In this document: positions 1,655 through 26,500 of the stretch, in pieces
Position numbering within the stretch: the first letter of the stretch is position 1
How the letters are laid out: each line of letters starts with the position of its first letter
DNA from: Thermoplasmata archaeon
Lineage (GTDB): Archaea > Thermoplasmatota > Thermoplasmata > Lutacidiplasmatales > UBA184
Direction: 5' to 3'
Assembly: GCA_028864975.1 (NCBI GenBank)
Contig: JAGWLG010000016.1
Location: forward strand, 1 to 64,000
Length of the DNA stretch: 64,000 nucleotides
Made by a program: the position numbers and the translations under genes
The notes under the pieces: model-generated
What the model was told of the DNA's origin: nothing
Databases searched by the model: none
What the model saw: only the letters and a program-made list of their open reading frames with translations

Positions 1655-4516
1655 CTAGCGGTGGGGCGGGTTTCGGTAGAACCGGTTGTCTGGTGCCCGC
1701 CCGGGCGATGAGGGACCCGTGCGGGAGACTGGGAGCCGCTCGACCTCTTTCGAGGCATCTTTGCCTGCTGCGCGATGGTTCCCTGCCCGTCGTCGTCCCC
1801 CCTTGGTCCGCAAGCGCCGCACCGACAAGACAACGACCAGGGCGAGGAGAAACACCCCCATCAGCAGGATGGGCCATGGAACTCCCAAAACCGGTCCGGT
1901 CAGGATGGACCAGGGCGATGCCGAGACCTGAACGGCCGCGCTGGCGCTGCTCAGCCTCCCGCCACTGTCCTGCACGGTCACCGTCACCACGTAGTTTCCC
2001 GCGTTGGCGTACGTATGGACGGTGCTGCCGGTCGCCGTGCTCCCAGAGCCGCTCCCGTCCCCGAAGTTCCAGAGGAAGGCGTAGGGGGATGTGCCGCCAG
2101 AGGGGAGGGCCGTGAAGCTTCCCTGCGTCCCGGGCGAGAGCTCAAGGGGTGCTTGGAGCTGGACGGCCAAGCTCGAAAGGGGTGGTCCCACGGTGATCCC
2201 CACGCTCTGCGTGCCCGTTTCGCCAAGCGAGTCCTGCACGGTGAGGTTCACCGTGTACGTCCTGCTCTGCGCGAACGTGTGAACGACCGTGACTCCTGTG
2301 CCGCTCGTAGCGTCCCCAAAGGACCAGGCGTAGGAGTACGGGGGGACGCCCCCTCCCGCGCTTCCCGTGAAGGCCACCGAGAGCGGGGCGACACCACGGG
2401 TCCGGTTGGCCAGGACCTGGGCGAAAACCGCCAGGTTCACATGCACCTGGGTCGAGGTCGCGGACTCAGAGCCGGCCGAGTCGGTGACCTCCAGAGTGAC
2501 AACGTAGATGCCGGGGGCCGAGAACGCATGCGTGACGTTCTGGGAAAGGGCGTTCGGAGAGAGGTCGCCCAGACTCCAGTTGTACAGGTAGGGCGGCCGC
2601 CCGCCGGTGGCCGAGCCCGCCAGGTTCACCTGGAGCGGAGCGGGTCCCACCGTGGGTGAGGCGCCCTCCACGGGAAGAAGCTGGCCGGCCGGGCCCAGGA
2701 CCTGGATGGGGAGGGAGCGCGAGGCGACGTGGCCCAGCGCATCCCGCACTTGGACCACCGCCGAGAACGACCCCGAGGAGTTGTAGACGTGCGAGGGGGC
2801 CCACGAAGCGGAGCCCGGGGAGCCGTCGCCGAAGCTCCAGGCGACCGAGTAGGGAGAAGCGCCGCCGGAGGCCGTTGAGGAGAGAGCGACCGATAGGGGC
2901 ACGACCCCCGAGATGGGGAACGCCGTCCCGGTGACCGCCAGCGGGCCGGGAGGAGGCGAAGAGCTCTGCACCTGGAGGACCGCGATGCTCTCCGAGGGCA
3001 TGCGCCACGTGAAGGGGAGGTGCGTGGGATAGGAGCGGAGCAGGGGGGTCGCCGAGGAGGCGTTCCACGTCAGGCTCGTGCCCGGCCCAGAAAGGACCTG
3101 AAGCCCCTCTTGCGAGAGGTTCAGCACGAGGGACCGGGTCGCGTTCGCGTTCACGACGAACAGGGAGAGCGTGGAGGCGTTCGAGCTGAGCAGCGTATAC
3201 TCCCCAAGACCGATGCTCGTGCTGGGCCCTACGGAAAAGTTGCCCGGAGGGAGCGTCGGATAGACCGAGGAGAACACCTGGTAGATGGTATGGACGGGGG
3301 TGTAGCTCGGGGGAAACCAGGAGCCGGGGTAGTCCCCCTGGAAGTCCCAGTAGACCATCGAGGGCTCTCCCACCGCGACGGCCTGCACCACCTCGGCGGA
3401 GACGAAGGGGACCATCGGGAACCCCGACATGTAGGCCGCGAGCGTCGTGCCCTCGGCCGCCCCGTACTCGCCCACCAAGAGGGAGATGCCGCAGCCGGGG
3501 CAGCTTGCGGCGATCGCCTGCTCGTCGCGCGGGACCCTCCAGAAGAGGCTGGAGGAAGAGTCGAGGCCCGAGAAGAACCCGGTCAGGCTCTCTCCGGTGT
3601 AGCCGCTCCCGTCAGGATAGACGTGGATGGCGACCGCGTTCACCCCGGGGGCCGCGAGGGTCGCATTGATCCAGTCCGTCTCCGACGTGCTCCCTGTTCC
3701 CACCCCCCCCAGGCCGATGACCGGAGTGGAACGGTCGATCGAGCGTATCGCGCGGACGTCACCCTCGACGACCTGGGTGTACTGAGCGAAGGTCGGCCCG
3801 CGGTCCTGCGAGGTCGTCCATGAGGTCCACGGAGTGTTGAAGTGCGTCCAGAGGGCAGGCTCGTTCCCGATCTCCCAGGCGTACGGGTGGAACCCCAGGG
3901 TCGTGCCGACGTAGGCGACCTCGGCCTTCACCTGCGAGGTGCTGTTGATCTCGGCCGGGAGGGAGAAGATGACCCGGAGGCTCAGGTTCTCGGCCATGGA
4001 GAGGAACGAGAGGGTCGAGAGCTGTGGTGTCGAGGTCGAGCCGTCGTCGTTGTAGATGACCCCGAGCCCGTGGTTCGCGAGGGGATCATACCGGTCGGTG
4101 TAGCCGCCCCCGGGCCATCGGACGAGCTGGGAGCCGGTCCGCGAGAGGTCGCGGGTCAGCGTCGCGTTCCAGGGGTCCAGGGGCCGGACATTCACCCCCC
4201 AGAACTCGGAGGAGAGGCTCGTCGAGGGTCGCGGGGCCCGCGTTTCGGGAACAGGAGCACCCTGAACCAACGGCCCTCCGCCTGGACGGTCAGTCCCTGG
4301 AGTCGATGGCGGAGAAGCTGGCGCGATGGGATGCACGAGGGGAACGGTCGGAAGCGAGAGCAGGACCGTGACGAGAAGCGTGCCCGCCGCGGAGGTACGA
4401 AGGACCGAGCGAACCCTACGACCCAGCAACGCTAGAGCTTCGCGGTCGGGTGAATTAAGGAGTGGGCCGGGCCGGGCACCCGAAGGAATGCGAACGGAGG
4501 TTCCTGGAATCGTCAC
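1655..4516 (-). CDS. Membrane-anchored clan GH-A glycoside hydrolase (GH39/44/51/79-like) with 4 PKD domains
   Basis: RWPGG, WEIGNEP (acid/base), VGEYG (nucleophile), C-terminal beta-sandwich, four WxFGD-type PKD repeats, TM + RRLR tail. Likely true start TTG 4429 (TATA at 4453-4458). Confidence 0.85.
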   Translation of the reverse strand: MTIPGTSVRIPSGARPGPLLNSPDREALALLGRRVRSVLRTSAAGTLLVTVLLSLPTVPLVHPIAPASPPSTPGTDRPGGGPLVQGAPVPETRAPRPSTSLSSEFWGVNVRPLDPWNATLTRDLSRTGSQLVRWPGGGYTDRYDPLANHGLGVIYNDDGSTSTPQLSTLSFLSMAENLSLRVIFSLPAEINSTSQVKAEVAYVGTTLGFHPYAWEIGNEPALWTHFNTPWTSWTTSQDRGPTFAQYTQVVEGDVRAIRSIDRSTPVIGLGGVGTGSTSETDWINATLAAPGVNAVAIHVYPDGSGYTGESLTGFFSGLDSSSSLFWRVPRDEQAIAASCPGCGISLLVGEYGAAEGTTLAAYMSGFPMVPFVSAEVVQAVAVGEPSMVYWDFQGDYPGSWFPPSYTPVHTIYQVFSSVYPTLPPGNFSVGPSTSIGLGEYTLLSSNASTLSLFVVNANATRSLVLNLSQEGLQVLSGPGTSLTWNASSATPLLRSYPTHLPFTWRMPSESIAVLQVQSSSPPPGPLAVTGTAFPISGVVPLSVALSSTASGGASPYSVAWSFGDGSPGSASWAPSHVYNSSGSFSAVVQVRDALGHVASRSLPIQVLGPAGQLLPVEGASPTVGPAPLQVNLAGSATGGRPPYLYNWSLGDLSPNALSQNVTHAFSAPGIYVVTLEVTDSAGSESATSTQVHVNLAVFAQVLANRTRGVAPLSVAFTGSAGGGVPPYSYAWSFGDATSGTGVTVVHTFAQSRTYTVNLTVQDSLGETGTQSVGITVGPPLSSLAVQLQAPLELSPGTQGSFTALPSGGTSPYAFLWNFGDGSGSGSTATGSTVHTYANAGNYVVTVTVQDSGGRLSSASAAVQVSASPWSILTGPVLGVPWPILLMGVFLLALVVVLSVRRLRTKGGRRRAGNHRAAGKDASKEVERLPVSRTGPSSPGRAPDNRFYRNPPHR
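4453..4458 (-). promoter_or_regulatory. Putative TATA box
   Basis: TTAATT on minus strand 24-29 nt before in-frame TTG 4429. Confidence 0.45.
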
Positions 4517-4567
4517 CCGAGGTTGCCCGCTTCGGCTAGGACACTACCTTCCGGGCTCGTCGGTGGC

Positions 4568-4957
4568 CTAAGGAGTTGTTGGTCGTGGAGCTCCCGTGAG
4601 ACGCGGGACCGCCCACTCCAACGAGAAGATCAACCCTGCGAAGAAGGCGAGCGTCGCGCCGACCAGGGCGATGAGGCTCCCGGTGAGGAATCCCCAGCCG
4701 ACGATGCCCAGCACGATCAGCGTGACCCCACCGACGATGCGCTCACCCGGAGTCCCCCGCGCGTAGTAGGTCATCACCCAGGTCAAGAGCCCCAGTACCC
4801 CGGCGAGGATGCCGAGCCCGATCCCCACGATCAGGCTCTGCGCGTGGGCGGTGACGACCGCATAGACCGCCCCAAGGATGAACGAGACGATCCCACCCAC
4901 GATGAGCAAGAGCCCGCCGACCGCGCCGAGCAACGAGGGTACAGCTTTTCGCTCCAT
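4568..4957 (-). CDS. Small 4-TM membrane protein, paralog of 59793..60194
   Basis: Four Gly-rich hydrophobic segments; aligns by eye with 59793..60194; TTAAA ~40 nt upstream. Confidence 0.75.
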   Translation of the reverse strand: MERKAVPSLLGAVGGLLLIVGGIVSFILGAVYAVVTAHAQSLIVGIGLGILAGVLGLLTWVMTYYARGTPGERIVGGVTLIVLGIVGWGFLTGSLIALVGATLAFFAGLIFSLEWAVPRLTGAPRPTTP

Positions 4958-5073
4958 GTGCGACCCGAGGACAGACGTTCACCTCGGGGAGCGGCTTTAA
5001 CCCCCTACTACCTCGAGCGCATGTCGTTACCGAAAGGTAACTATCGCCGTCCTTCACCTAAGGACCGGTGGGA

Positions 5074-8000
5074 TCAGGGCGGCGGAGGGTACTGCATGAC
5101 CGGTGGCACGCTCGAGCGCCTCCGGTGAATGATCACCACGACGACCACGGCGATCAGGGCCACCGCCGGCAGGACGAGCAGCAGTACCCCTAACGTGCCG
5201 AGCCCGAACCAGCCTGAGCTGCTCGTGGTCCCAGCTGACGAGACGGGGTAGATGTTGACCTCCGCGTGTCCGACGCCCGTGTGACCCGCGGAGTCCGTGA
5301 CGGTCAGGGTGACGTTCAGATGGCCAGGGGAGGTCGGCACGCAGGAGAAGCTCGCGGCGTTGCGAGAGGTGCATCCGCTCGGGAGCGAGGTCCAGGCGTA
5401 GGTGCCGTACGTCCCCGTTCCGCCCTGGACCGTGGACGAGAGCGTGAGCGTGCTCCCCAACCCAAGGGAGGAGGGGCTGGGCACGACCGTTACGCTGATC
5501 GAGGACGAGGAGGGTGTCCACACGTCAACTTCGGTGGTGGCCGAGGCGTGTGCTCCGATCGAATCCACGACCGAGACCGAGGCGTTGAAGTGTCCCGTGC
5601 CCGAAGGGGTGCATGAGATCGTGGAGGTGGTCCCCGAGCTGCAGCCGGACGGCAGCGAACTCCAGGCATACGGCCCGTACGGAGGAGTACCCCCGGACGG
5701 CGTGGCACTCAACGTGAAGGAGGAACCCAGCTCCAAGCTCAACTGGGGCGGTGAGACGGAGACGCTCAGGGCCGCGCTGCTCGAAGGCCAGACTGCAACC
5801 GCCGTCGTGGAGGATGCGGTGGACCCGGCGGAATCGCGGACCGTAACCGTCGTGTTGAAGTGGCCCGCGGCCGAGGGCGTGCAGGTCAGAGCCGAGGTCG
5901 AAGCGCCACCGCATCCTGTCGGAAGACCCGTCCAGGTGTAGGAGGAGTAGGTGCCGCTCCCCCCGAAGGCAGTCGCGGTGAGGGTGGTGGTGCCGCCGAG
6001 CGCGAAGGAGCGGGGCGCGGCCGAGAGCGAGACCGAGAGGGAGTTCGAGCCGGAGTTCCACACGTCGACCTCCGCGCTCCCGCTGCCGCTGTGCCCGAGG
6101 TCATCGGTCACGGTCGACGTCGCGTTCCAATGCCCGACCGCCGTCGGCGTGCAGATGTAGGAGGCGACCCACCGCGTCGCGCAACCCGTCGGCAGGTTCG
6201 TCCAGGAGTAGTTCACGTAGTTGCCGGTCCCTCCTCCAGGATAGGAGCTCAGCTGCACGCCATACCCGAGGGCAAGAGAGGTGGGGTTCGCGTTCGCCGA
6301 GACCGTCAGAGGAACGTAGGGGTTCCAGGCCGCCACGCTCACCTGGGCGGTGCCCGAAGCCCCGTTCGAGTCGTTCACCCAGAGCCAAGCCGTGTAGTTG
6401 CCAGGGGAGGTGTAAGTGTGCGTCGAGTTCTCCGTCGCCCCGCTCCCACCGTCACCGTACCTCCAGGCGAACGCGTACCCAGGAGTGCCGCCCGAGGCGT
6501 TGGAAAAGAAGTTCACGGTCAGCGGAACGTGTCCGGACGTGGGGTGGGCGGAAGCGGTCGCGGTTGGTGGGGGAGGAGAGGTCCCCTGAAGGACGATCTG
6601 GACCGTCGAGGTCGTCCGCTTCGTGACGGTGGCATTGGCGAACCCGTTCCCGACCAACGGCTTGTAGCCGGTACAGAAGATGGTCCCCGGCACGAGATTG
6701 TAGAAGGTGACCGTTCCCGCCGAATTGGTCCGGCCCCCTCGGCCCCCGATGTCCACGAAGGCGTTCGGCACGGAGTGCGAGCTGGAGTCGACCACGCTGA
6801 CGGTCAAGTTCCCGTCGTTCGTGTTCTCGTACGGGACCTGCGCGAACTCGGTCATGAGCCTCGTGTTCGTCCGGTTGTCGCCCCAGACTACGCCCGCGGT
6901 CCCCCAGGGGGTCAGCTTCGACCAGATCCAGTCGCCGCTCCAGAACCCGGAACCTGTCCCCACCACCGCGCTGGAGATCTGCTGCAGGGGGGACCAGCTG
7001 ACACCGTTGTCCGGGCTGTCCCGCTCGTAGACGTTCCATTGGGCGGTCGAAGGGTTGGCCCGCGTGTCGAGCCAGAAGATCGCGGTCTCCCCGGTGGCAG
7101 GGTCAGTCGCGATCGTGGGGGTCTGGAAGGTGGTCCCGCTCGGGGGGCTCCCCGAGAGGGTGACCGGCGTGGACCAGGACTTTCCCCAGTTGAACGTCTG
7201 GGAGAACATCACGGCCGTCGCCGCGCTGTTGAGGAAGACGATGTCGACCGCCGGCCCTTCTCCCCAGACCATCTGCCAGGTGATCGACCCACAGCCGGTG
7301 GGGGAGGATGCGGCCGCCTGCCAGCTCGCTCCGGAGTCGTTCGTGGTGATGAGCTGACAGACCCCGGGCTGGCTGGGGGTCGCCTGGTCGCCGACAAGCC
7401 AGTGCGTGTTGTCCAGCGCATCGGCGGAAGCGGTCGTGTCGCCGTTGCTGTAGAGCAGCACGACAGGATGGAACGTGAAGCCGTTCCATGCCGTGGACTC
7501 GTAGATGTTCGGACACACGTTCCCCGGGCAGGAATCGACGACGGAGACCACGGTCCCGTTCGGGGTGGACATGATCCAGTCCCGGTCCAGGAAGTTGTTC
7601 CCGGTGGTGGCCGAAGGGACCGAGACGACCGGTTGGCTGAGGTGTGTTCCGTTGTTCCACATCACCGTCGTGTAGGTGTTGTCGGGCGCGGTCGGACTCG
7701 GGTCAGCCCCGTACGAGAGCCACATCGTCCCGTTGGGGGATGCGGCGGTCTGGGCCACATCGAACTCGAACTGGGCGTTCGCGCAGGAGGTGTCCGTGCC
7801 GAGGTAGGGTCCCACGGCCGCCGTTCCCGTGAACGACGCACCGGAGTCGAGGGAGGAGCTCATGCCCACGGGCCCAAGGGGACATCCCGCGACGGCCTGG
7901 TCCTCCCAGGAGGCGGTCATGGCCCCCCAACGATTGATCGCGAACTCGGGCTCTCCAGCCGCCGCGCTCGGCCATCCGGGACTTGCGAGGACGTTCGTGG

Positions 8001-8196
8001 GTATCGCGCGGGTCCAGAAATGGGTCGGGAGGGAGGAGGCGAGGGGAACGAACCTTGAGTCGGGGACCGGGACCCCTCGATGCGCAGCAGCTCCGACCGC
8101 CGAGAACGGGACGGTCCCAAGGACCAGGACGGCCAAGATTAAGCCCACACGCACGGCGGTCGCTCTTGGGGGCAGTTCACCGCTCCGGGTCTTCAC
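5074..8196 (-). CDS. Surface protein: Asp-box (BNR/sialidase-like) propeller + PKD + 4 GLPxGC-type Ig-like domains + TM
   Basis: Asp-boxes SLDSGASF, TNDSGASW, TFNWGKSW, SPDNGVSW; PKD WRYGDG; W.xLP.GC...C repeats; TM then HRRRSSVPPVMQYPPPP. Confidence 0.85.
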   Translation of the reverse strand: MKTRSGELPPRATAVRVGLILAVLVLGTVPFSAVGAAAHRGVPVPDSRFVPLASSLPTHFWTRAIPTNVLASPGWPSAAAGEPEFAINRWGAMTASWEDQAVAGCPLGPVGMSSSLDSGASFTGTAAVGPYLGTDTSCANAQFEFDVAQTAASPNGTMWLSYGADPSPTAPDNTYTTVMWNNGTHLSQPVVSVPSATTGNNFLDRDWIMSTPNGTVVSVVDSCPGNVCPNIYESTAWNGFTFHPVVLLYSNGDTTASADALDNTHWLVGDQATPSQPGVCQLITTNDSGASWQAAASSPTGCGSITWQMVWGEGPAVDIVFLNSAATAVMFSQTFNWGKSWSTPVTLSGSPPSGTTFQTPTIATDPATGETAIFWLDTRANPSTAQWNVYERDSPDNGVSWSPLQQISSAVVGTGSGFWSGDWIWSKLTPWGTAGVVWGDNRTNTRLMTEFAQVPYENTNDGNLTVSVVDSSSHSVPNAFVDIGGRGGRTNSAGTVTFYNLVPGTIFCTGYKPLVGNGFANATVTKRTTSTVQIVLQGTSPPPPTATASAHPTSGHVPLTVNFFSNASGGTPGYAFAWRYGDGGSGATENSTHTYTSPGNYTAWLWVNDSNGASGTAQVSVAAWNPYVPLTVSANANPTSLALGYGVQLSSYPGGGTGNYVNYSWTNLPTGCATRWVASYICTPTAVGHWNATSTVTDDLGHSGSGSAEVDVWNSGSNSLSVSLSAAPRSFALGGTTTLTATAFGGSGTYSSYTWTGLPTGCGGASTSALTCTPSAAGHFNTTVTVRDSAGSTASSTTAVAVWPSSSAALSVSVSPPQLSLELGSSFTLSATPSGGTPPYGPYAWSSLPSGCSSGTTSTISCTPSGTGHFNASVSVVDSIGAHASATTEVDVWTPSSSSISVTVVPSPSSLGLGSTLTLSSTVQGGTGTYGTYAWTSLPSGCTSRNAASFSCVPTSPGHLNVTLTVTDSAGHTGVGHAEVNIYPVSSAGTTSSSGWFGLGTLGVLLLVLPAVALIAVVVVVIIHRRRSSVPPVMQYPPPP

Positions 8197-10593: not shown

Positions 10594-10667
10594 CCCTCGG
10601 GCGGGCGCTGTGGTGAGAGGCCCGACCGAGAGCGCCGGGTTCCGGCGTCTGCGCCATCGAAGGAGGG

Positions 10668-10673
10668 TTATAC
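10668..10673 (+). promoter_or_regulatory. Putative TATA box of the GH25 gene (leaderless transcript)
   Basis: TTATAC ~25 nt upstream of ATG 10695 in a GC-rich background. Confidence 0.55.
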
Positions 10674-10694
10674 CGGGCTGCCGTTGAGAGGGGC

Positions 10695-13226
10695 ATGGGC
10701 CACCGCGGCGGCGCGCCGTGTGGGGTACCTCGAGCGGTCCACCGGGAACCTCGGGACCTCTTCGTCGGCGTCGTGGTGCTCGTGGGGGTCGTCGCTCTCC
10801 TGGTCCTTCCGGGGGCGTTGGCCGCCCCTTCGGTGCGCGTCGCTACCCCCTCGCCCGTTCCGGCGTTCCACGGGGGGACCTCGTCCGTCCTGGGGTCTCC
10901 TCGAACTCCTCTCACCCGACTGAACGGGGTCGACGTGTCCAGCTACCAGGGCGGGATCAATTGGAACAGCGTCGCATCGGACGGGATCGTCTTTGCCTTC
11001 ACCAAGGCGACCCAGGGCGACTACTACATCGACTCGACCTTCGCTCCGAACGAGCAGAACGGGCACGCGGCCGGGGTCTACGTGGGCGGCTACGACTTCG
11101 CTGACCCGGTCAACGTCGGGGCCGTGACGGAGGCCAACTATTTCGACAGCGTCGCGGGTCCCTACTTCAAGACCGGGTTCCTCTATCCTGCCCTCGACCT
11201 CGAGCAGGGATGCGGGACGCTCAGCGTCACCGCGCTCTCCGACTGGACGAACACGTGGATGAGGACGGTCCAGTCCTACATCTCCGCCCACGGGTTCAAC
11301 ATCGTTCCGATCGTCTACATGAACAGCAACTACGCCAACAACTGTGTCGATTCCTCGGTGGCCCAGTGGCACCTCTGGATCGCCGACTACTGCGGGGGAT
11401 GCAACCCGAGCACCGGGGTCTTCCCATACTGGAACTTCTACCAGTACTACGACTGCGGGTCCATCTCCGGGATCGGAGGCTGCGTCGATGTCGACTGGTT
11501 CGGCGGGGACCTCTCCGCGCTCCAGGGAGGCTTCGTCTTCGGTACGCCCCCCCTGACCGCGAGCTACTCGGTGGTGGACCGCACCACGGGGAAATCCCTC
11601 TACTGCGGCGATAGCTTCGCCTCGGGCGACACGATCCAGTTCACGGGTAGCGCTTCGGGAGGCTCGCCGGGGTACTCGTTCGCGTGGGACTTCGGGGACG
11701 GAACGACCGGTTCCGGGAACCCCGTCAATCACGTTTACAACATGGTGGGGACGGTGAATCCCATCCTCACGGTCACGGACTCCAAGGGGGCGACCGCCAA
11801 GTCTGGGAGCGGGTGCGATTTCACGGTCACCGGGACCCCGGTGACCTTCTACACCCAGCCCCCCGGCGCGGCGACGATCCTCCTGGCGGGGAACCCGTAC
11901 ACGAACGGGCAGTCGACGATCCTCGTGCCGGGTCACAGCTATTCGCTGACCTTCGGCGCCTCCCCGTCCTACATCTTCTCCGGATGGAACTGGACGGGAG
12001 GGGTCACGATCTCTTCGCCGCTCTCCACATCGACGACGCTCACCGTCACGAGCACCACGCCTGCGACGGTCACCGTCTCGTTCGTGACCCGGAGCTCGAT
12101 CTACTTCCTGAGCTCTCCCAACGACAAGGCCTCGGTCGAGATCGGGGGGAGCATCTACAACAGCGGGCAGAACGTGACCGCCTCCGTCGGCACCCCGTAC
12201 CCCCTGCTCGCCCTTCCGAACCCTGGCTACGTCTTCGTCCAATGGCAGGTCACGGGGACCGGCATCCAGGTCCAGTCTCCCGACCAAGCTTCCACGAACC
12301 TGACGGTCCTTTCCGCTGCATCCTCGACGCTGACGGAGGTCGTCCTCTGGAACGTGCCGAAGGCTCCGACGGACCTGAACGTGATCGGGGCAACGAGCTC
12401 GTCGCTCACGCTCACTTGGGATCCGCCCCCCGGTGACCTCAGCGGCTACACCCTGGGGAGCAGCACGGGGGCGAGCCCCCCCAGTGGGATCGGCGGATTC
12501 CAGCTGACCTCCTTCGGAGGAGCGGGAAGCTCCTACGTCTTCACCGGGCTCGAGCCCCAGACGAAGTACTGGTTGTCGCTGGCAGGGGTGAACTCCACGG
12601 GGCAAGGTGGCTGGAGCGCCTGGACCTGGGGGACCACCCTCGCTCTCCCGCAGCCCCCATCGGACCTGGTCGTGGACCGCCGCGGGAGCACCTGGGCCTA
12701 CCTCTCGTGGCTGACACCGACCGGGGGGGCCTCGATCGGAAGCTATACTCTGAACTGTTCCACGAGTACCCCCGGGGCCTCCGACCGGATCGTCCCCGAA
12801 ATCCCCACAAGTTCGACCGTCTACAACGCGACGGGGTTGACGGCAGGTGCGCATTATTCGTGCTTCCTGGTCTCGGTCTCAGGGGCGTACACGAGCCCGC
12901 CCTCCAACGACGCCGCCTTCACGCTCACCGGAGGAGCCGCCCCGCCTCCCTCGAACGGTGGCGGAGCTTGGTGGGAGGGCGTGGGGGCCTGGCTCCGGGG
13001 GACGCTCCGACCCCCGTTCGTCCTCGGCTGGGCGCTGGTCGCCGGGGCCGTGGTCGCCGCGGTGGGACTGCTCCTCTTGCGCAAGGGACGACATCACGGC
13101 GATGAGGACGACGCCGCGCTCGCGGAGGCTTTGGCCCGCCCCGAGCCTCCCGGCACGGTGGAACCGACCGGAAGTACGACCAAGGAACTCGAGGAGACTC
13201 GCCCGGGGCCCCCTGCCGGAAGCTGA
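10695..13226 (+). CDS. Membrane-anchored GH25 muramidase (lysozyme) with PKD, Ig-like and 2 FN3 domains
   Basis: GVDVSSYQG, FAFTKATQG, GGYDFA, PALDLEQ (DxE), WNFYQY...G.ISGIGGCVDVDWF are GH25 motifs; PKD WDFGDG; FN3 (PTDL..LTWDPP; PSDL..LSW); C-terminal TM. Confidence 0.9.
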   Translation: MGHRGGAPCGVPRAVHREPRDLFVGVVVLVGVVALLVLPGALAAPSVRVATPSPVPAFHGGTSSVLGSPRTPLTRLNGVDVSSYQGGINWNSVASDGIVFAFTKATQGDYYIDSTFAPNEQNGHAAGVYVGGYDFADPVNVGAVTEANYFDSVAGPYFKTGFLYPALDLEQGCGTLSVTALSDWTNTWMRTVQSYISAHGFNIVPIVYMNSNYANNCVDSSVAQWHLWIADYCGGCNPSTGVFPYWNFYQYYDCGSISGIGGCVDVDWFGGDLSALQGGFVFGTPPLTASYSVVDRTTGKSLYCGDSFASGDTIQFTGSASGGSPGYSFAWDFGDGTTGSGNPVNHVYNMVGTVNPILTVTDSKGATAKSGSGCDFTVTGTPVTFYTQPPGAATILLAGNPYTNGQSTILVPGHSYSLTFGASPSYIFSGWNWTGGVTISSPLSTSTTLTVTSTTPATVTVSFVTRSSIYFLSSPNDKASVEIGGSIYNSGQNVTASVGTPYPLLALPNPGYVFVQWQVTGTGIQVQSPDQASTNLTVLSAASSTLTEVVLWNVPKAPTDLNVIGATSSSLTLTWDPPPGDLSGYTLGSSTGASPPSGIGGFQLTSFGGAGSSYVFTGLEPQTKYWLSLAGVNSTGQGGWSAWTWGTTLALPQPPSDLVVDRRGSTWAYLSWLTPTGGASIGSYTLNCSTSTPGASDRIVPEIPTSSTVYNATGLTAGAHYSCFLVSVSGAYTSPPSNDAAFTLTGGAAPPPSNGGGAWWEGVGAWLRGTLRPPFVLGWALVAGAVVAAVGLLLLRKGRHHGDEDDAALAEALARPEPPGTVEPTGSTTKELEETRPGPPAGS

Positions 13227-13569: not shown

Positions 13570-16500
13570 GTGGTGGCCAGAACGCTCATTTACCACATGA
13601 TTGGATGCGCACCCATGTACCACGGGCATCGCTCGCGGGTCCACCCCTCCAACGATGAGATCGCCACGGCTAGGAAGCTCTACAGGTCCGTGAGGGGGCC
13701 GCTCGGCCCACGAGGTTGCGCCCTCGCGTCGCTCGTGGTCCTTCTCATGGGGATCCCCCTCCTTCCGACCGCCACCGACGTCGGGGGCGCCGTGCGATCC
13801 CCTAGCGGCCACCTTGGCGACCCTACCTCGGCGGCTCTGATCGTCAAGGGGCCCGCCTCGCTGCTCGACGGACGCGCGGCGTCCACCGCCTCGACTCTGA
13901 CCTCTCTGCCCTCCTCCTCCCCCTCTGGCTCCTCCTCGTCCGTCCCTCGATCCGGCCCTTCCGCCTCGACCCCACCCGCCTCCTCTGGCTCCCCCCTTAC
14001 GGCGAGCGGTGGTTCGGTCGCTTCCGCGACACCCTCCCCCACGTCGAGCGCGGGAACCGAGCTCCTCCAAGGAGCTCAACGCTCGCTCGAACAAGGACAG
14101 GGGCCGGCCCGGGGCACCGCGTGGAACTGTGGTCAGCCCGCGGGAGGGGGGAGCGAGAGCTGTGCCGCCAGCTCTGGGTCTTCCGCCGACGTCCTCTCGG
14201 CCCCTTCGAACCCCAGTTGGGCCTTGCTCGGGACCCCCTCCCCCCGTTTGGGGGCGACAATGGCCTTCGACCAGGCGGACAACGAGGTCGTCCTGTTCGG
14301 CGGCGAGAACTCGGCGGCGCAGGGGGACACGTGGACCTTCCGCGCGGGCAGCTGGAGCCCGGTGGTCACGCCGGTAGAACCGACCCCTCGCGGGTACGCC
14401 AGCATGGCGTACGATGTGGCCGACGGGTACGTCCTCCTCTTCGGCGGGGTCGCCCCAGGGGCCGGGTACCTTCAGGACACCTGGACGTTCAGTGCGGGCT
14501 CTTGGACCAAGCTCGCCTCCGCGACCTCTCCCGGGGTCCGCATCGCCGCCTCGATGTCCTACGACGCGGCCGACGGATACCTGGTGCTCTTCGGCGGGAA
14601 GGGGTGTTCCACCGCGAGCAGTTGTGCGGCGACAGACCTTCAGGACACCTGGAAGTTCGTCGGTGGGGTCTGGGCGGAGCTCTTCCCCGCAAGCTCCCCC
14701 GGGATCCGGGAGTTCTCGATGGTGGGGTACGACGCTTACGACGGTTACGTGCTTCTCTTCGGAGGATATGGGTGCACGACCGGGAGCTCTTGCTCGGAGG
14801 GGCTCCTGCAGGACACTTGGTCCTACAAGGCCGGGACCTGGAGCTTGGTCACCGGGAGCACGCCCCCGGGAACGCGGGAGGCCGCGGCGCTCGCTTACGA
14901 CCCCACGATGAGCGGGCTCATCTTGGTCGGGGGGGACGGCTGCAGCACGGGGAACGCGTGCGCATCGTACTACCTCCAGGACACCTGGCTGTACCTCAAG
15001 GGGGCGTGGTCGCAGCTTACGCCGAACGCGGTCCCTGGGATCCGGGACCTGATGCCCATGGCCTACGATGGCGTGGACGGTTATCTCCTCCTGTTCGGCG
15101 GGCTCGGCTGTTCCGATGCCTCCTCTCCGTGCCCGATCTCCTACCTCCAGGACAGCTGGGTCTTCGCGGCGGGCACCTGGACCGAGCTCACCTCCCCCTC
15201 CTCCTCTCCCGGGGTCCGGGGGATCGCGACGCTGGCCTACGACCCTATTGACGGCTACGTGCTCCTCTTTGGCGGGTATGGCTGCGTCGTCGGGAGCACG
15301 TGCACCGCGGGGGATCTCGGGGACACCTGGACGTTCCAGGCCGGGACCTGGACCGAGCTCTTCCCGAACCCGTCGCCGGGGGCCCGGGACGGGTCGGCGC
15401 TGGTCTACGACGCGGCCGACGGGTACATGTTGCTCTTCGGGGGATACGGTTGCAACACGGGGAGCACCTGCACGCTCGCCGACCAGCAGGACACCTGGAC
15501 GTGGGCGGGAGGAAGTTGGACGCAGCTCGCGCCGCCAGCTCCTCCGGGGGCGCGCGTCGCGCCCGCGATGAGCTACGACCCCACCGATGGCTACGTCCTC
15601 CTGTTCGGAGGGTACGGTTGCACGACCGGAAATACCGGTTGCACGTCGTTCCTTTCGGACACCTGGGACTTCCGAGGGGGAACGTGGACCCAGCTCGCGC
15701 GCATCGGTCCCCCACAGCGCTACATCGCGTCGATCGCCGACGACGCGGCGGACGGCTACGTCGTCCTGTTCGGGGGTCTGGGATGCGAGAACTATCCCAC
15801 CTGCTCCGCGTACGGGGAGCTCGCGGACACCTGGCGCTACGCGGGGAGCGGGAACTGGGTGAACATGACCTCGACGGCGGGGGGGCCACCGCCCGCGCGA
15901 GACGGGGCCGGCATGGCCTTCGACACGGCGGACAACTATCTCCTCCTCTTCGGCGGCTTCAGCACGACAGGGTCCGACCTCTCGGACAGTTGGAAGTTCC
16001 TAGGGGGCAGCTGGACCGCGCTCTCCCCGACCCTCGCCCCCGGCGTACGACGCTACACCGAGATGGCCTACGACGGGCATGACGGGTTCCTCCTCCTCCT
16101 CGGGGGCAACGGCTGCACCTTCGGCACGTCGTGCGCCGTGAACTGGATGCAGGACTCCTGGGCGTATGGGGCCCCGCTGACGAGCGCTATGGTCGTCGCC
16201 TCTTCCGCGAGCCGCGACGTGGGTCAATCGGTGACCTTCACCGCCGGGGCGACCGGCGGCGGGAGCGGCTCCTACCAGTTCCTATGGGCAGGGCTCCCCC
16301 CTGGGTGCGTTCCGACCTCGCCCGCCCCCGGGGTCACCTGCGCACCCACGACCGCCGGGACCTTCCAGGTCAGCACGGTGGCCGAGGACTCCACTGGAGC
16401 GCCGCAGGCGACCAGCGGGACCCTCGCGTTCATGGTCTACAGCGACCCGACAGCCGCTGCGTCGGGATCGACCCCTTCCATCGACCTCGGCCAGTCGGCG

Positions 16501-19500
16501 ACCTTCACCCTTTCCACCTCGGGAGGGTCGGGAGGCGATGGCTACGCCTGGAACGGCCTCCCCACAGGCTGTTCCTCCTCGGCGGGCCTTTCCGACACCT
16601 GCACGCCCGCGCTCGCCTCCGCCGAGGGGGCCTGGTCGGTCTCCGCGACGGTCACGGACTCGAACGGGTACTCGGTCAGCTCTGGGGGGGTCGCCCTCAC
16701 CGTCGACTCCGACCCTTCGGTCGCGGCCCCCTCCGAGAGCCGCACCGCGCTCGACGTGGGACAGGTCCTGAGCCTCTCGACCACGGTGTCGGGAGGTTCG
16801 GGAGGATATGCCTTCACCTGGTCGGGACTCCCGACTGGATGCAGCTCGGTGAATGCTCCGTCCCTGAGCTGCTCTCCGAGCGCGGCGGGGGCCTTCTCTT
16901 CGATCTCGGTCAGCGCGCTGGACTCGAACGGGGTGATGGGCGGCTCGCCCATTGCGGCGTCGATCACGGTGTCGGCCTCACTCGTGGTCCCGACACCCAC
17001 CTCGTCACCCGGGACCCTGGACCTCGGGCAATCGACCACGCTCGCGCTCTCCCCCTCGGGGGGCCGGGCGCCGTACACGATCAGTTGGTTCGGCGTACCC
17101 ACCGGATGCACGGCGAGCGGGACGAGCTTCCTTTGCACGCCGACGGCCACGGGAACGTACTCAGTCTACGCGACGGATGCTGACAGCAACGGCGCCACGG
17201 TGACGAGCGGCGCGGTCACGGTCAATGTGCTCGCCGACCCCCAGATCGTGAGCTTGGCCTCGAACCGTTCGGCCACCGACCTGGGGACCGGATTCACGAT
17301 CACCGTCCAAGCCATCGACGGCACGGGAAGCTACTCCTACACGTGGACCGGGCTCCCGCTCGGTTGTGTCGTCCCTGGCCTTTCGACGATCACCTGCAAG
17401 CCGACCGTCGTGGGTCCCTTCACGCTCAGGGTCTACGTCAACGACAGCACCGGGACGTCGACCAGCCAGACGCTCGCCCTGATGGTCGACAGCGACCCAA
17501 CGACGACCGCGCCAACGGCGAGCCCTACCTCCCCGATCGACGCGGGATCGAAGGTCGTCTTCCAGACCACCGCGAGCGGCGGGAGCGGAGGCTACAGCTA
17601 CACCTGGGTCGGGCTCCCGTCGGCAAGCTGCCCCGTGGCCATCGGGTCCTCGCTCGAGTGCGACACACTAGGAGTCGGCAACTACTCGGCCTCCGCGCTC
17701 GTCCGCGACTCGAACGGGGTCGGTTACGCGAGCGGCGCGCTCGCCTTCACGGTCCTCCGCGACCCGGTGCTCTCGAATGTCGTCGCGAACCGGACCGCCA
17801 TCGACGTGGGGGCGCGAGTGATCTTCAACGCGACGGCCTACCGGGGGCAGGGTCCGTACAGCTACGACTGGTCCGGTCTCCCGGCGGGGTGCTCGAGCGC
17901 GAACACCGCGATGCTTTCCTGCCTCGCGACGGGGAGCGGGAGCTTCAGCGTGGGGGTCTCGGTGGCCGACGCCGTGGGGGGATCCGCGAGCAGCACCACG
18001 CTCGGCTACGTCGTCTACCCCGACCCCTCGCTCTCCTCGCCCAGCGCGAGCGCGACGACCCTCGACTTGGGACAGTCGGTCGCCTTCTCGACGACCCTCT
18101 CTGGAGGGTCGGGGGGCTTCTCCTTCACGTGGAGCGGGCTCCCCGGCACGTGCTCCGGGACGGGCGGGTCCAGCCCCTCCTGCACCACGACCGCGGCGGG
18201 GAACTTCTCCATCATGGTCTCGGGCAAGGACTCGGCGGGGGCCTGGACCTCGAGCACTTCCCTCGCCGTGAGGGTCCTCAAGGACCCCGGCGTGACGACC
18301 CCGACCGCCGTCCCGTCGGCGGTGGACATGGGCGAGAGCACGACCTTCTTCGGATACGGGTGGGGAGGGGAAGCCCCCTACACCTATTCCTGGTCCGGGC
18401 TCCCCGCGGGGTGCACCTCGTCGAGCGCGGCCAGCCTGAGCTGCACGCCCACCTCGGCCGGAGGCTACACCGTGCAGGTGACGGTGACGGATGCGCTCGT
18501 CGTCTCCGCGACGAGCCCGACCCTCACGTTCACCGTGTCGGTCGCCCTGGTGGTCTCCCCCGTGACCTTGAGCCCCGGGTCCATCGATGACGGGCAGTCG
18601 ACCACCTTTTCGACCTCGGCCTCCGGGGGGGTGGCGCCGTACGTCTACGCCTGGGCCGGACTCCCTTCAGGGTGCCTGAGCGCGAACACCGCCTCGATCC
18701 TCTGCACGCCGTCCCCGTCGACCTCCGGCACGTTCTCCATCGTAGCCTCGGTGCGGGACGCCCATGGGATGAACGTGAGCTCGAGCCTGGCCTCTCTGAC
18801 CGTTCTCGCGGCGGTGGCGGTGGGCGCCCTCACAGCGACGCGGGGTTCCCTCGATGTTGGCCAGGCGACGACCCTCTCGGCGACGGCGGCTGGGGGGACG
18901 GGGGTCTACAGCTACACCTGGTCCGGCCTACCGACCGGCTGCGGGAGCGTGAACTCGGCCACGCTCACCTGCACGCCCACCGGGTCGGGCACCTTCGCCA
19001 GCGTGGGCGTCCGGGCCACGGACACGAACGGCCAGGGCTCCTCGAGCTCGCCACTCTCCCTCGTGGTCGCTCCTGACCCCACCATCTCGATCCCCACCGC
19101 GACGCTCTCTGCCCTCGATGTGGGGCAGACGACCACGCTCACCGTGTCAACCACGTCGGGAAGCGGTGGCCCCGTCTACGCGTGGGTCGGGTTGCCGGTG
19201 GGTTGCCCGAGCGCCAACGCGTTGAGCGTGGCCTGTACGCCCGCTTCGGGCGGGACCGGGACCTTCACCGTGAAGGCCTCGGTCGTCGACTCGAACGGCG
19301 ACAATATCTCCTCCGGACCGCTGACGCTCTACGTCTACCCCGCGCTCGGCGGCGCAAGCCTCACCGCCACCCGAGGTTCCTTGGACGTGGGAGAGAGCAC
19401 GACCCTCACCGCCTCCTCCACCGGAGGGTCGGGGGGCCTCATCTACGCTTGGAGCGGGCTCCCCAGCGGCTGCCCGGGAGGGAACGTGCCGACGGTCGCT

Positions 19501-21962: not shown

Positions 21963-23057
21963 ATGACAGAATTGCCTCCGGAAGCCCGCCGCGCGGTGGG
22001 TCTCCTCCCGGGAGAGACGCTGGCAAGTTCTTGGCCCGCCGCCCACCAGCGACCTGGGGCCCCGAGCGGGTCGGAGGGCTTCCTCGTGGTGACCTCGAAC
22101 CGACTGCTCTTCCTCCAAGAGGCCGGAGGGAGGCTCTCGAAGAGCTACCAGCCGGTCCCCGGACTCAGCTGGCCCCTCGCGACCCTGGGGGAGGTCCGGG
22201 TCGAGGAGAACCGAGGCAGGATGTCCTCGACCTCCTGGCTCTTGGTGCAGGGCGAATACTTCTCGGTGGGAAAGGGAGGGGCCCAGGAGAACTCGAGGGC
22301 GCGCTGGTTCCTCGAGCAAGCGCGCTCCCGCGCCGCCCGACCCCCTCCCTCGAGCCCGGCCCCGGTCACCCCAGGAACCTTGGCCCCGGTTGCGCCCTCG
22401 CCCCCGCCGCAGTCGGTGCCCTCGGCCCCCAGTGTCCCCCTTCAACGGCCCCCGACCGCCCCGAACGTTGTTGCGGCGGTCTCGGCGACGGCCGGGGCCC
22501 CCGCGCAGCCTTCCTTCGTCCGGGAGCCCACCCCACACGCCGCCCTCTCTGAGCCCCCCAGAGCGGAGTCGGCCCACGGCCTCTCTGTCCCCGGATTCCC
22601 CACCTGGCCCATGGTGCCGATCACCATCGTGGAGACCCCGGAGCCCAGCAAGTTCTGGAGCATCGTGGGGTCCTCCGGGGTCGAGCGCGACAAGATGCTC
22701 GTGTTCTGCACCGAATCTCCCGGGGAGCTCTCCGCCTCGTATGGGCTCGCGGGCGCGACCCTGTGGCGCATTGCGAGCAGCGAGGGCGAAGGGAAGGTGA
22801 AGCCCGGAGACGTGGACCGACTGGGGCTCTTGATCGAGGACCACTTCGCCCAGGCAAGCGGGCAAGCCGTGGTCCTCAAGGGCCTCGACCGGATCATCGA
22901 GGAGGCGGGGTTCCGCGGCGCTAGGCGGCTGCTCGAGGTGGCGCGCGAGGTCGCTGAGAAGACCCGGGGTGCGGTGATCGTCCACGTCGACCCCATCCTC
23001 GTCGGCCCGAAGGAGATCCACCAGCTCGAGGAGGACGGCAAGGTCCTCAAGCTCTGA
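21963..23057 (+). CDS. DUF835-domain protein with N-terminal PH-like domain and Pro-rich linker
   Basis: N-term LLPGE...EGFLVVTSNRLLF (bacterial PH-like); C-term MLVFCTESP..LW...VVLKGLDRII...AVIVHVDP...EIHQLEE (DUF835). Confidence 0.75.
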   Translation: MTELPPEARRAVGLLPGETLASSWPAAHQRPGAPSGSEGFLVVTSNRLLFLQEAGGRLSKSYQPVPGLSWPLATLGEVRVEENRGRMSSTSWLLVQGEYFSVGKGGAQENSRARWFLEQARSRAARPPPSSPAPVTPGTLAPVAPSPPPQSVPSAPSVPLQRPPTAPNVVAAVSATAGAPAQPSFVREPTPHAALSEPPRAESAHGLSVPGFPTWPMVPITIVETPEPSKFWSIVGSSGVERDKMLVFCTESPGELSASYGLAGATLWRIASSEGEGKVKPGDVDRLGLLIEDHFAQASGQAVVLKGLDRIIEEAGFRGARRLLEVAREVAEKTRGAVIVHVDPILVGPKEIHQLEEDGKVLKL

Positions 23058-23594: not shown

Positions 23595-26500
23595 TCAGCG
23601 CGGGGGCGGGGGCGGTGGTGGGGGCCAGGAGGGAGGGGTGGGAGTGAACATTGGACCGTAAGGAGGGGGCACGCTCGCGCGCCGTCGCTTCCTCGCGAGG
23701 AGGACCGCGACGACGATACCCACGATGGCGACGGCCAGGACCGCCAGCACGAGAGGGCTCGTGAGCAGACCGACCAGGTCCCCAGCTCCTCCGTTCGATG
23801 GGGCGGGGGTGATGGTCACCTGGGCAGACCCTTGGGCGCTTTCACGACCCGTGGCCGTCACGGAGACGGTGATCGTCGCGGTGACCGTCGACGAAGGCGA
23901 TGGGGCGGTGAGCTGCGCATCGAGCTTCCCGGCGGTGTCGGTAGCGCCGGAAGCAGGGGTGATGGTGCCCTGGTCCACCGTGAGGGCTAGGGTTGCTCCC
24001 GAGATGGGGGCGCCGCTCCCATCCGTCACCGAGACCACAACGGCGACGGTTCCGCCCGCCGAGATCGTGTTCGGGGTGGGGGTGACCACGACGGCCATCG
24101 GGAGCACAACATACAGACGAAGCGTGCCACTTCCAGTGGTGTAACCGGGCTCGGACGCGTGGGCGGTCAGGGTTACCGTGGTCGCGGAGGAAGGGGACGG
24201 TGCGGTCAGAAGGAGGTCGACGGTCCCGTTCGTGGGGGTCGTCGCCCCCATCAGGCTGAGGGAGCCGGAGGTGACCGAGAAGGACTCAGAGGCGCCGGCG
24301 ACAGGGGACCCCGCGCTCTCCAAAAGGGCATGGACGGCCACCGTGCTCCCGGCGACCGCCTCGTAGCTGGCGGCGGAGAGGTTGAGCAAGAGCGGCGGCG
24401 CAGGGTCGATCTGCACCGTCGCGGTGAGCGTCGTCGGCGCGTACCCGCTCTTCGAGAGCGCGACCGAGATCGTGTCGGTCGAAGGAGATGCGACGCTCGA
24501 CACGGTGAGGTTCGTGAACGCCGCGCCGGCGGCGGTAGAGGACGTTGAAGGAGGAGAGAAGGTCCCTCCCAGGCTGTCGGTGAAGGTCGCCGTGGCTCCC
24601 TGGATGGGGGTGCCGGAGGAGACGATGGCCACGGTGATCGCGGCGGGGAGACCCGCGGTCGTCGCTCCCGAAGGGACCGACACGCTCCCGGTGAGCACCG
24701 GCTGGTCGACGACCGCGGCGTAGACGCCTCCCGGATGCGCAAGGCTCGCCGAGGCGTTGGCCCACACATCCAGTGTAAGGGGGACCGAGGTCGCCGGGAG
24801 GGTGAAGTTCGACCAGACGCTGCCCCCCACATTGGTGGTACCGGAGGCGGGGGAGAAGAGATCGCCCTTCTGATCGGCGAAGGCGACCGTGGCTCCCGCC
24901 ACGGCACCGCTGGTATCCGTGACGGAAGCATGGACCGTGACATGGGACCCCGGATTGCCGGGGTTCGGGGTAACCGAGAGCGCGACCGAGAGCGTCGGCT
25001 CAGGGTCCAAGGTCAGCGTCGCGGTCCCGTTGTTCCCCGGGTGCCCTGGGGCGGTCGCGGCCGCGTCCACCGTGTCGGAGGTGGGGGTAGTCACCGAGGG
25101 GGTGGTGAAGTTCGCATAGGCATACCCCGCCGCGTCGGTCGTCGTGGAGGCGGGGGTGAAGGAACTCCCGCTCGTGTCCGAGAACCCGACGTTGGCCCCA
25201 GAGACCGGGGACCCGCTGGGGAGCGAGACGTAGGCAACAGCGGCGACGGTGCTGCCACCCACAACGGAAGCCGAGGGGGTCGGGGTGAGCGTGACCTGCA
25301 GAGGAAGCGGGTCGATGGTGATCACGGCCGTCCCTGACCCGGGGTTGTACCCCCCTGCGGTGGCCGACGCGGTGATTGTGTCGGAAGTTGCCGCGAGGAC
25401 GGTGGGAGCGGTGAAGTTCGTCCAGGCGTTGCCGTTGGCCCCGACGGTGACGGGGTTGGGGGAGAAGCTGTCCGTGAGGGTGTCCGAGAAGCTCACGGAA
25501 GCCCCGGGGACCGGGACGCCGGCGGATGTCACGCTCGCTATGACGGCGACTGTCGAGCCGGAGGTCGCCGAGCTCGAGGGTGTGGTCGTGACCGAGACCG
25601 AGAGGGTCGGGGTGCCGCTCGGGTTGTAGATGGCTTCGAGCGGGGAACTCCCGTTCATGGCGACATTCGTGAGCGCGCTCATGGACGAGGCGAACATCCC
25701 CTGCCAGTGCGAGAAGGTGTAGCCGGTGACGCTCGCAGGGACCGAGATGTTGTGCACCGTTCCGCGGGTCCAGTACTCGGTCGACGGGAGGGCGGTCGAG
25801 ACGCCGTCCACCGTCGCGGTCACTCCGGCGATGTTCGCCGAGAGGTCCAGCCAGGCGAGCTGCCCCACGTAGAGGTCCTCGTTCATGTTCCCCGTGACCC
25901 CATTGCGGAAGTCGGTCCAGACCGAGAAGTCCCCGGCGGGGCTCCAGAAGGTGTTCTCGTAGTCCCCCATGAACGCTGACCAGACCGTCGGGTTGCCGCT
26001 GACCGAGGAGACCCGGACGTTCCGCGCGAAGGTCTGCCCTCCATCCTTCGAGACCGCGACGGTGGTGTCGACGTAGAAGTCCCCGGGGACGTACCTCCGG
26101 TCCAGGAACTCGACGTAGACCGTGCCGTTCTTCCCGACGGCCAGCTGGGGGAACCAGTGGTCCGCTCCGTCGCTGGGGTCATTGTTGACCGAGATGGGGG
26201 AGCTCCAGCTAGAGCCGTAGTTCGTGGAGCGGAGCAGACGGATCTGAAGAGAGCTCACGTTCTCCGTGTAGACGATGTAGAGGTCGCCCTTGTACGGGCT
26301 TCCCGCAGAGGTGTCGCCAAAGATCTGGGGGAAGCAGTTCATCCGACCCACCCCCCCGATCGCGGGGAACCCAGAGCTTCCGGCCGGAGCACACGTGATC
26401 GACCCCAGGTTGGCCTCGGCGGAGAAGGCCCCGCCGGGGGCCGTGGCCCGCGAGAACTCGAGGTCAGAGCCGGTCGCTCCTCCCTCCCATACCACATCCA

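Follow-up and report, generated by a model that had tools for sequence, protein, structure and literature searches.

To our knowledge, evidence that archaea attack bacteria is scarce and consists of one assayed GH25 lysozyme, that of Aciduliprofundum boonei, together with a few haloarchaeal peptidases. The purified A. boonei enzyme kills Bacillaceae (Metcalf et al., 2014, eLife, PMC4241558, as summarized in PMC12352652). A later survey of archaeal peptidoglycan hydrolases took only proteins that combine a catalytic domain with a cell-wall-binding domain, and named Thermoplasmatota as a phylum rich in peptidoglycan hydrolase genes (Strock et al., 2025, PLoS Biol, PMC12352652). Here we describe a GH25 gene from an uncultured member of the Thermoplasmata (assembly GCA_028864975.1, contig JAGWLG010000016.1, hereafter C54). 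The window that we analyzed is a stretch of 64 kb, the first 64 kb of this 72-kb contig (GC content 68%), and the gene in question encodes a protein of 843 amino acids (aa), P0001. Archaeal peptidoglycan hydrolases are already known (PMC4241558; PMC12352652), and P0001 represents a stalk-anchored variant that is probably active and probably anchored at the cell surface; our literature search found no description of stalk-anchored GH25 proteins in Thermoplasmata. On balance, we think it probable that P0001 is a native, vertically inherited archaeal surface muramidase, held in the membrane and acting on foreign peptidoglycan, which likely serves to open neighboring bacteria.

The case for activity begins with the catalytic head. 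It matches Pfam family PF01183 over the entire profile (positions 1-180 of 180; residues 79-260 of the protein) with an E value of 3.5e-33 and 116 bits against a cut-off of 27, and the same gene reached 120 bits in a profile scan of the whole genome. The best solved relative is cellosyl from Streptomyces coelicolor (PDB 1JFX; phmmer E 1e-25), whose residues D9, D98 and E100 align with D80 (in the motif GVDVS) and with D168 and E170 (in LDLEQ) of P0001. Across an alignment of 79 sequences D80, D168, E170 and D265 are invariant, as are Y133, Y208, W228 and Q250. An alignment-based AlphaFold model of residues 60-380, with a predicted local distance difference test score (pLDDT) of 93.8, gives the head the β/α-barrel fold of GH25 enzymes: Foldseek matched it with a probability of 1.00 to 1JFX (TM-score 0.82) and to the fungal lysozymes 6ZMV and 2X8R (0.83-0.84), at root-mean-square deviations (rmsd) of 2.2-2.9 Å, and matched the second domain of the model to the PKD domain of ColG (TM-score 0.87). 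A prediction for all 843 residues from the single sequence had a pLDDT of 36. Because the head has the full GH25 catalytic set and fold, it most likely cuts the β-1,4 bond between N-acetylmuramic acid and N-acetylglucosamine (MurNAc-β-1,4-GlcNAc) in bacterial peptidoglycan.

The original prediction, made from the letters of the window, had pointed to intact GH25 motifs and to extra cysteine pairs in this protein, and both are borne out, the motifs by the profile match, the alignments and the model and the cysteines by the sequence. The mature protein has ten cysteines, enough for five pairs. One of these, C173/C217, adjoins the catalytic glutamate and is present in 100% of the archaeal GH25 clade described below and in 0% of the sequences outside it. 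The C304/C374 pair of the PKD domain is conserved in about 90% of the clade, while C233/C236 and C254/C263 are restricted to the orthologue group of P0001. Cellosyl and the fungal GH25 enzymes share the fold and the catalytic residues with our protein at about 30% identity, but are small, soluble, single-domain secreted proteins without the C173/C217 pair, the stalk or the anchor.

What surrounds the head in P0001 is predicted to be, in order, a Sec-type signal, the GH25 domain, a PKD domain (Pfam match at residues 306-369), two InlB-type B-repeats, two fibronectin type III (FN3) domains, one C-terminal transmembrane (TM) helix and a tail of 48 aa. The signal has a basic n-region, a hydrophobic core at residues 22-40 and the sequence A41-L42-A43 preceding A44; unstructured linkers rich in Pro, Ser and Gly lie at residues 44-74 and 746-772, and a basic patch, RKGRH, directly follows the TM helix. 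This agrees with the series read earlier from the sequence (PKD, Ig-like, two FN3, TM), with the difference that the region then called Ig-like can now be named as two Flg_new_2 domains, that is, InlB-type B-repeats; the boundary given for the second FN3 domain is an estimate. The predicted topology puts the GH25 head outermost, five Ig-like domains beneath it as a stalk and a type-I anchor at the C-terminus, and the earlier proposal that a C-terminal anchor and stalk hold the enzyme outside the cell stands at the level of this hydropathy-based prediction. We do not claim that the stalk is heavily glycosylated: there are six N-x-S/T sequons, all of them in the stalk, where 7.4 ± 2.3 would be expected from composition.

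From these features we can propose how P0001 might work. The Sec-type signal would export the protein, and the single C-terminal helix would then hold it in the membrane of the archaeon, with the basic patch following the positive-inside rule and a short tail in the cytoplasm. The five Ig-like domains (PKD, two B-repeats and two FN3) would place the head some 15-25 nm outside the membrane, a reach that we estimate from typical sizes and counts of such domains. There the head would cut the MurNAc-β-1,4-GlcNAc bond of foreign peptidoglycan, with Gram-positive neighbors, damaged cells and shed wall material as the candidate targets within reach of the surface. The anchored layout would keep both the enzyme and its products beside the producer, and the payoff would lie in opening or weakening neighboring bacteria, whether as antagonism or as access to their contents.

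The closest assayed system, that of A. boonei, resembles P0001 in more respects than expected from the original prediction, which had set a tethered enzyme here against a diffusible antibiotic there. A 1725-bp GH25 gene in one of the genomes that we sampled (G042, L038:2311-4035, minus strand) has exactly the length given for the A. boonei gene (PMC4241558). The A. boonei-type product (UniProt B5ID12) is 574 aa long and consists of GH25, Amidase_6 and two SH3_3 domains; by hydropathy it has an N-terminal hydrophobic segment and a C-terminal one at residues 549-567, followed by KRK, seven residues from the end. The original description of the enzyme says nothing of a signal peptide or of a transmembrane segment (PMC4241558), and the assayed lysozyme may itself be membrane-anchored. 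The proposed contrast fails, since the A. boonei product also has a predicted signal and C-terminal anchor. The two proteins further share intact catalytic residues, a Thermoplasmata host without peptidoglycan synthesis, and inheritance within their lineages. They differ in that P0001 is 843 aa long, carries a PKD/B-repeat/FN3 stalk and a 48-aa tail, and has no second catalytic or wall-binding domain: Pfam finds neither Amidase_6 nor SH3_3 in it, and no open reading frame (ORF) of the genome matches the A. boonei-type Amidase_6-SH3 segment in phmmer searches. Of the two, it is the A. boonei enzyme that has been assayed. A sister family in the same order mounts the same enzyme in another way: its proteins of about 1600 aa (G027, L026:345-5156, plus strand; G025, L027:544-5364, plus strand) carry the GH25 domain at the extreme C-terminus, have an N-terminal hydrophobic segment only, and fall in the A. 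boonei-type clade.

The hydrolases in the survey of Strock et al. (PMC12352652), among them Woldo of Halogranum salarium, are, like P0001, archaeal peptidoglycan cutters with secretion signals and a proposed antibacterial role. According to that survey, their genes are patchily distributed and enriched on plasmids or small contigs, whereas the GH25 family described here lies on the chromosome in several copies, keeps its synteny within the genus and evolves under purifying selection; the characterized examples there are soluble M23 peptidases, not anchored glycosidases. The modular hydrolases of that survey have at least one wall-binding domain, and P0001 has only PKD, Flg_new_2 and fn3 domains beside GH25. 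In general build, P0001 resembles archaeal surface proteins that combine PKD domains with a membrane anchor at the C-terminus, such as the Methanosarcina surface-layer protein with a YVTN propeller and PKD domain (1L0Q), to which its PKD domain matches; it shares with them a signal peptide, a head and an Ig-like/PKD stalk. The PKD-stalked archaeal surface proteins bear a propeller or structural head, however, where P0001 bears a peptidoglycan hydrolase.

Our data place the gene firmly in the archaeon. The genome bin measures 3.6 Mb in 124 contigs, with 89.6% completeness and 1.9% estimated contamination, and falls in the class Thermoplasmata, as does the A. boonei genome; its only 16S gene scores 1488 bits with an archaeal model versus 1095 with a bacterial one. 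The tetranucleotide correlation with the genome is 0.993 for C54 and 0.994 for the contig carrying the 16S gene, and the GC content of C54 is typical. Closely related proteins bear the name 'Candidatus Thermoplasmatota archaeon' and come from contigs of up to 596 kb. Among the related genomes sampled, GH25 genes are found in three of three congeneric genomes (G001-G003) and in five of five from a second genus of the family. We regard the locus in G001 as orthologous because the downstream DUF835 and Big_1 neighbors are kept, although the giant gene that lies between differs; the permease gene found upstream in our window is absent from the orthologous loci of G001-G003. The ratio of nonsynonymous to synonymous substitutions (dN/dS) of the GH25 head is about 0.25 against G001 and G002, with dS near saturation between the bin studied here (G000) and G001-G003; for the whole gene, G001 against G002 gives 0.22 at low divergence. 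The parts that evolve faster are the signal, the linker at residues 44-74 (dN/dS 0.5-0.7) and the tail (0.57-0.74). The GH25 gene is native, archaeal and under purifying selection. The original prediction had allowed for a bacterial or chimeric contig; by its composition, the orthologues, the partial synteny and the lineage-typical layout of its surface-protein genes, it is neither.

Two observations on the related loci may be added. The DUF835-domain protein (364 aa, window 21963-23057, plus strand) is a conserved syntenic neighbor of the GH25 gene in both G001 and G002. A gene on an 8.2-kb contig of genome G019 (contig C243, L022:1076-3637, plus strand) has a dS of only 0.08 from the G001 orthologue, yet its bin is assigned to another genus; that bin has 7% contamination and 260 contigs, and C243 is probably mis-binned.

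The anchor gains its meaning from the surrounding genes. Genes for large surface proteins are clustered in the window, and besides P0001 at least eight of these proteins have, in this order, a signal, a head, PKD or other Ig domains, one C-terminal TM helix, a basic patch and a Pro-rich tail. Their heads are Kelch propellers in several cases and unknown in others; their PKD domains are membrane-proximal and their basic patch is of the RRRR type. A crude heuristic scan of the genome found the anchored layout in about 126 of 1306 long ORFs; the ORFs with this layout make up about 12% of genome length, and nine of them lie on C54. By the same kind of heuristic, P0001 has the signal, single C-terminal TM helix, R/K residues and low-complexity tail that are typical of anchored surface proteins in this lineage. 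Judged by these predicted layouts, the C-terminal anchor is the lineage's standard display mode for exported proteins, onto which a GH25 head has been grafted. As the anchor is generic to the lineage, tethering of the enzyme is credible; by the same token, the anchor is not a contact-killing device specific to the lysozyme.

P0001 is one of four GH25 proteins in the genome, encoded on C54, on C97 and twice on C15, each with a GH25 head and PKD-type stalk domains. The three proteins of this set that are complete at the C-terminus (C54, C97 and C15b) all end in the TM helix, basic patch and tail, and the same anchor is present in 17 of the 18 closest relatives among the matches listed (P0002-P0019). 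The bacterial relatives listed (autotransporter-repeat proteins of Verrucomicrobiota type and others) lack such an anchor. In trees of 222 and 131 GH25 domains, the archaeal sequences of this type form one clade with SH-like (Shimodaira-Hasegawa-like) support of 100 (FastTree) and 99 (IQ-TREE), and all members that can be assigned to a genome belong to this archaeal family. The paralogues of the bin studied here lie in four subclades that are shared with other genera, and the duplications are therefore old. Within the class as a whole, GH25 is carried by 15 of 301 genomes, belonging to four families only.

Where the clade came from is less clear. The nearest named bacteria are Planctomycetota (Botrimarina, and separately a triple-GH25 protein in a PVC-like gene context) and Verrucomicrobiota (Pedosphaera), at about 39-44% identity, and neighboring clades also contain Asgard and Thermoplasmatales sequences. 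Sequences of the A. boonei type fall in a different, likewise well-supported GH25 clade, together with two other Thermoplasmata families and an Asgard-named cluster. Support for the backbone between the archaeal clades is 22-26, and the phylogeny, which had been suggested as a way to find the donor, names none. A tree that joins both archaeal clades is slightly better (approximately unbiased (AU) test, p 0.74), with groups that were defined after the tree had been seen and many rows unlabeled. With a joint archaeal clade compatible with the data, we claim neither an acquisition independent of A. boonei nor a shared one. A search for related loci in a collection of genome contigs gave a single distant Actinomycetota match.

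Some of the outer sequences deserve mention in their own right. Among the closest bacterial relatives is P0097 (L045:10001-15028, plus strand), which is 1675 aa long, has three GH25 domains in tandem, groups with the Botrimarina (Planctomycetota) lysozyme and has a bacterial gene context (S6-SSB-L9 genes, Hc1 and PilZ). The 830-aa GH25 cluster of P0144 (P0252-P0257) carries the NCBI names of Promethearchaeota, Heimdallarchaeota, Hodarchaeota and Thorarchaeota metagenome-assembled genomes and groups with Thermoplasmata sequences in the tree. GH25 genes may be shared among several archaeal phyla.

As to the substrate, no penicillin-binding-protein transpeptidase was found in the genome, and the one weak Mur-ligase-like match is to a family that is also matched in archaeal control genomes. 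With no sign of peptidoglycan synthesis, the GH25 substrate is taken to be foreign. The genome contains at least five peptidoglycan-directed genes, namely the four GH25 genes and one for a LysM-NlpC/P60 protein. The latter (contig C64, L048:3361-6630, minus strand) encodes 1089 aa with two LysM domains and an NlpC/P60/Amidase_6-type domain, and adjoins the gene of a 1037-aa PKD protein. Bacterial marker models detected no MurQ, NagA, bona fide NagB, GH3/NagZ, Amidase_2 or M23 in the roughly 90%-complete genome. Given that the usual genes for amino-sugar salvage gave no match, while there are three more GH25 paralogues and a LysM-NlpC/P60 protein, it is more likely that the enzymes weaken or open neighboring bacteria, be it for antagonism or for access to their contents, than that they serve to feed on wall sugars. 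The scavenging of bacterial walls that had originally been offered as an alternative to contact-dependent lysis is, for wall sugars, unsupported.

Several other explanations have to be weighed against a native surface muramidase that opens bacteria. We give next to no credence to the idea that bacterial DNA ended up in the archaeal bin through wrong binning or a chimeric join. GH25 is typically a bacterial family, and the metagenome bin has 124 contigs and an estimated contamination of 1.9%; against this stand the partly syntenic orthologues in three bins of the same genus and several of the same family, the relatives on long Thermoplasmatota-named contigs, the genome-typical composition, and flanking genes that share a lineage-specific anchored layout seen on at least 12 contigs. 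The head could also have left peptidoglycan, to become a glycan-binding adhesin or to cut another β-1,4-linked amino-sugar polymer. Anchored proteins next to it bear Kelch-propeller heads that are probably for binding, the clade has its own C173/C217 pair beside the catalytic glutamate, and its members score 85-124 bits on the Pfam model versus 145-185 for the A. boonei type. Even so, we consider such a shift very unlikely, given the invariance of all four catalytic acids and of the aromatic residues in the groove, the purifying selection, and a fold that matches those of active lysozymes with an rmsd of 2.2-2.9 Å. Lysozyme activity is, as far as we know, the only one on record for GH25 in CAZy.

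Closer to our interpretation are two explanations that accept the muramidase and dispute its use. The enzyme might be mainly nutritional, trimming peptidoglycan debris (necromass) at the surface for the uptake of sugars and peptides. Such a role was raised for the A. boonei enzyme by Metcalf et al. (PMC4241558), tethered exoenzymes limit diffusive loss, and the gene 100 nt upstream, on the same strand, encodes an amino-acid permease. This permease is not kept in the G001-G003 loci, however, and the disaccharide-peptides released by a muramidase would still have to be processed by other enzymes. The bacterial marker models gave no match in the genome for MurQ, NagA, a bona fide NagB, GH3/NagZ or Amidase_2. 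We judge a mainly nutritional role unlikely. We see about as little reason to expect that the anchor is a way-station from which the enzyme goes on to act at a distance, either after proteolysis in a linker or on budded membrane vesicles. The two unstructured linkers could be cut, and a type-I anchored protein would coat the outside of any vesicle that budded, a process that occurs in Thermoplasmata. On the other side, all paralogues whose C-terminus is complete, and 17 of the 18 closest listed relatives, retain the TM helix, the basic patch and the tail, which exceeds what a disposable signal needs; moreover, there is no recognizable protease site or sortase-type signal, and the tail of about 48 aa is unlike a short end of the PGF-CTERM type.

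It should be noted that several points also weigh against a muramidase that is displayed on the surface and opens bacteria. The walls of Gram-negative bacteria are shielded by an outer membrane, and an S-layer of similar height, if present, may keep the head from projecting beyond it. The calls of the signal peptide and TM helix come from a home-made hydropathy scan, not a trained predictor. Pfam finds no LysM, SH3, PG_binding or other recognized cell-wall-binding domain in P0001, and affinity for peptidoglycan must therefore come from the head or the Ig-like domains. The anchor, being generic to the lineage (about 126 ORFs), says little about a 'contact' mechanism specific to the lysozyme. 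Finally, the absence of salvage genes rests on a 90%-complete genome and on bacterial models, and alternative archaeal routes are possible.

Turning to the gene itself, the P0001 ORF has precisely the ends first proposed for it, 10695 and 13226 on the plus strand, and begins at the first start codon past an in-frame stop. Its third-position GC of 0.86 resembles that of other genes in the window. We regard an antisense ORF of 728 aa (10668-12854, minus strand) as spurious, a product of the high GC content, since the domain matches and the codon bias are all in the plus-strand frame. A putative promoter precedes the gene (Table 1), with TTATA at 10668-10672, that is, 23-27 nt upstream of the ATG; the pentamer occurs just twice on the plus strand of the window, which supports the TATA box of its own that the gene had been credited with. 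The G001 and G002 orthologues have a comparable upstream element (AAGG and TAAAATA). It is plausible that the GH25 gene has its own promoter, and, to judge by the spacing of TTATA and ATG, its mRNA may be leaderless or nearly so. With a TATA-like element of its own and no conservation of the amino-acid permease as its upstream neighbor, the GH25 gene was judged not to share an operon with that permease. We found no phage context: the neighbors are the permease, giant Kelch/PKD surface proteins and the DUF835 protein, no holin or phage structural genes were seen around the GH25 gene, and the 64-kb window contains no tRNA. A phage or prophage endolysin was rejected on these grounds, and the anchored architecture of 843 aa is unlike that of endolysins.

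Table 1. Predicted features of the GH25 gene, neighboring surface-protein genes and GH25 paralogues (window coordinates unless a contig is named).
Feature	Coordinates	Strand	Basis
Whole gene, predicted type-I membrane-anchored GH25 muramidase (P0001)	10695..13226	+	ORF, Pfam, codon bias
Putative archaeal promoter: purine-rich BRE-like AAGGAGGG, then TATA-like TTATA	10660..10672	+	sequence reading
Predicted Sec-type signal peptide, residues 1-43	10695..10823	+	hydropathy and sequence; putative cleavage site
Pro/Ser-rich linker, residues 44-74	10824..10916	+	sequence; low confidence in model; poorly conserved
GH25 catalytic head, residues 75-285	10917..11549	+	Pfam, PDB phmmer, alignment, model and Foldseek, dN/dS
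PKD domain, residues 295-375, conserved C304/C374 pair	11577..11819	+	Pfam, Foldseek to ColG PKD
Two InlB-type B-repeat (Flg_new_2) β-sandwich domains, residues ~380-552	11832..12350	+	Pfam PF18998, 2 stretches
Two fibronectin type III domains, residues ~555-745	12357..12929	+	Pfam PF00041, 2 stretches, E 3.7e-21
Predicted single C-terminal TM helix, residues 775-795	13017..13079	+	hydropathy peak 2.47
Predicted acidic, Pro-rich cytoplasmic tail (residues 796-843) with the stop codon	13080..13226	+	sequence
Giant predicted anchored surface proteins (953-2757 aa)	1655-8196, 13570-21843, 23595-27476, 31057-42034, 49390-55617		hydropathy, domains
GH25 + PKD paralogue	C97:83339-85951	-	genome scan
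GH25 + PKD paralogue, cut by contig end	C15:3-1472	-	genome scan
GH25 + PKD paralogue (C15b)	C15:4433-7240	+	genome scan

In summary, uncultured Thermoplasmata carry a conserved, multi-copy, chromosomal family of GH25 proteins with predicted anchors, which a wall-binding-domain criterion such as that of PMC12352652 would miss. The chromosomal location of the family, its synteny within the genus and the purifying selection on it are more in keeping with a stable lifestyle trait than with a patchy, plasmid-borne arms-race weapon as described by Strock et al. A bolder picture, which we offer as a doubtful though conceivable one, is that arrays of anchored muramidases, together with anchored adhesin-like propellers and the LysM-NlpC/P60 protein, make up a contact-dependent bacteriolytic surface that grips and opens Gram-positive bacteria, with the four paralogues possibly tuned to different wall chemotypes; this would amount to a form of archaeal grazing or predation not yet documented.

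If the proteins are active and displayed, peptidoglycan attack would be a stable trait of this lineage and not a weapon gained now and then by horizontal transfer. The GH25 enzymes of Thermoplasmata may share cell-bound display, and, with the A. boonei enzyme also predicted to be anchored, cell-bound delivery might be the usual archaeal mode. Under the same condition, the family would provide a source of disulfide-stabilized muramidase heads for enzymology. It also offers a handle for co-culture and enrichment work on conflict between archaea and bacteria.

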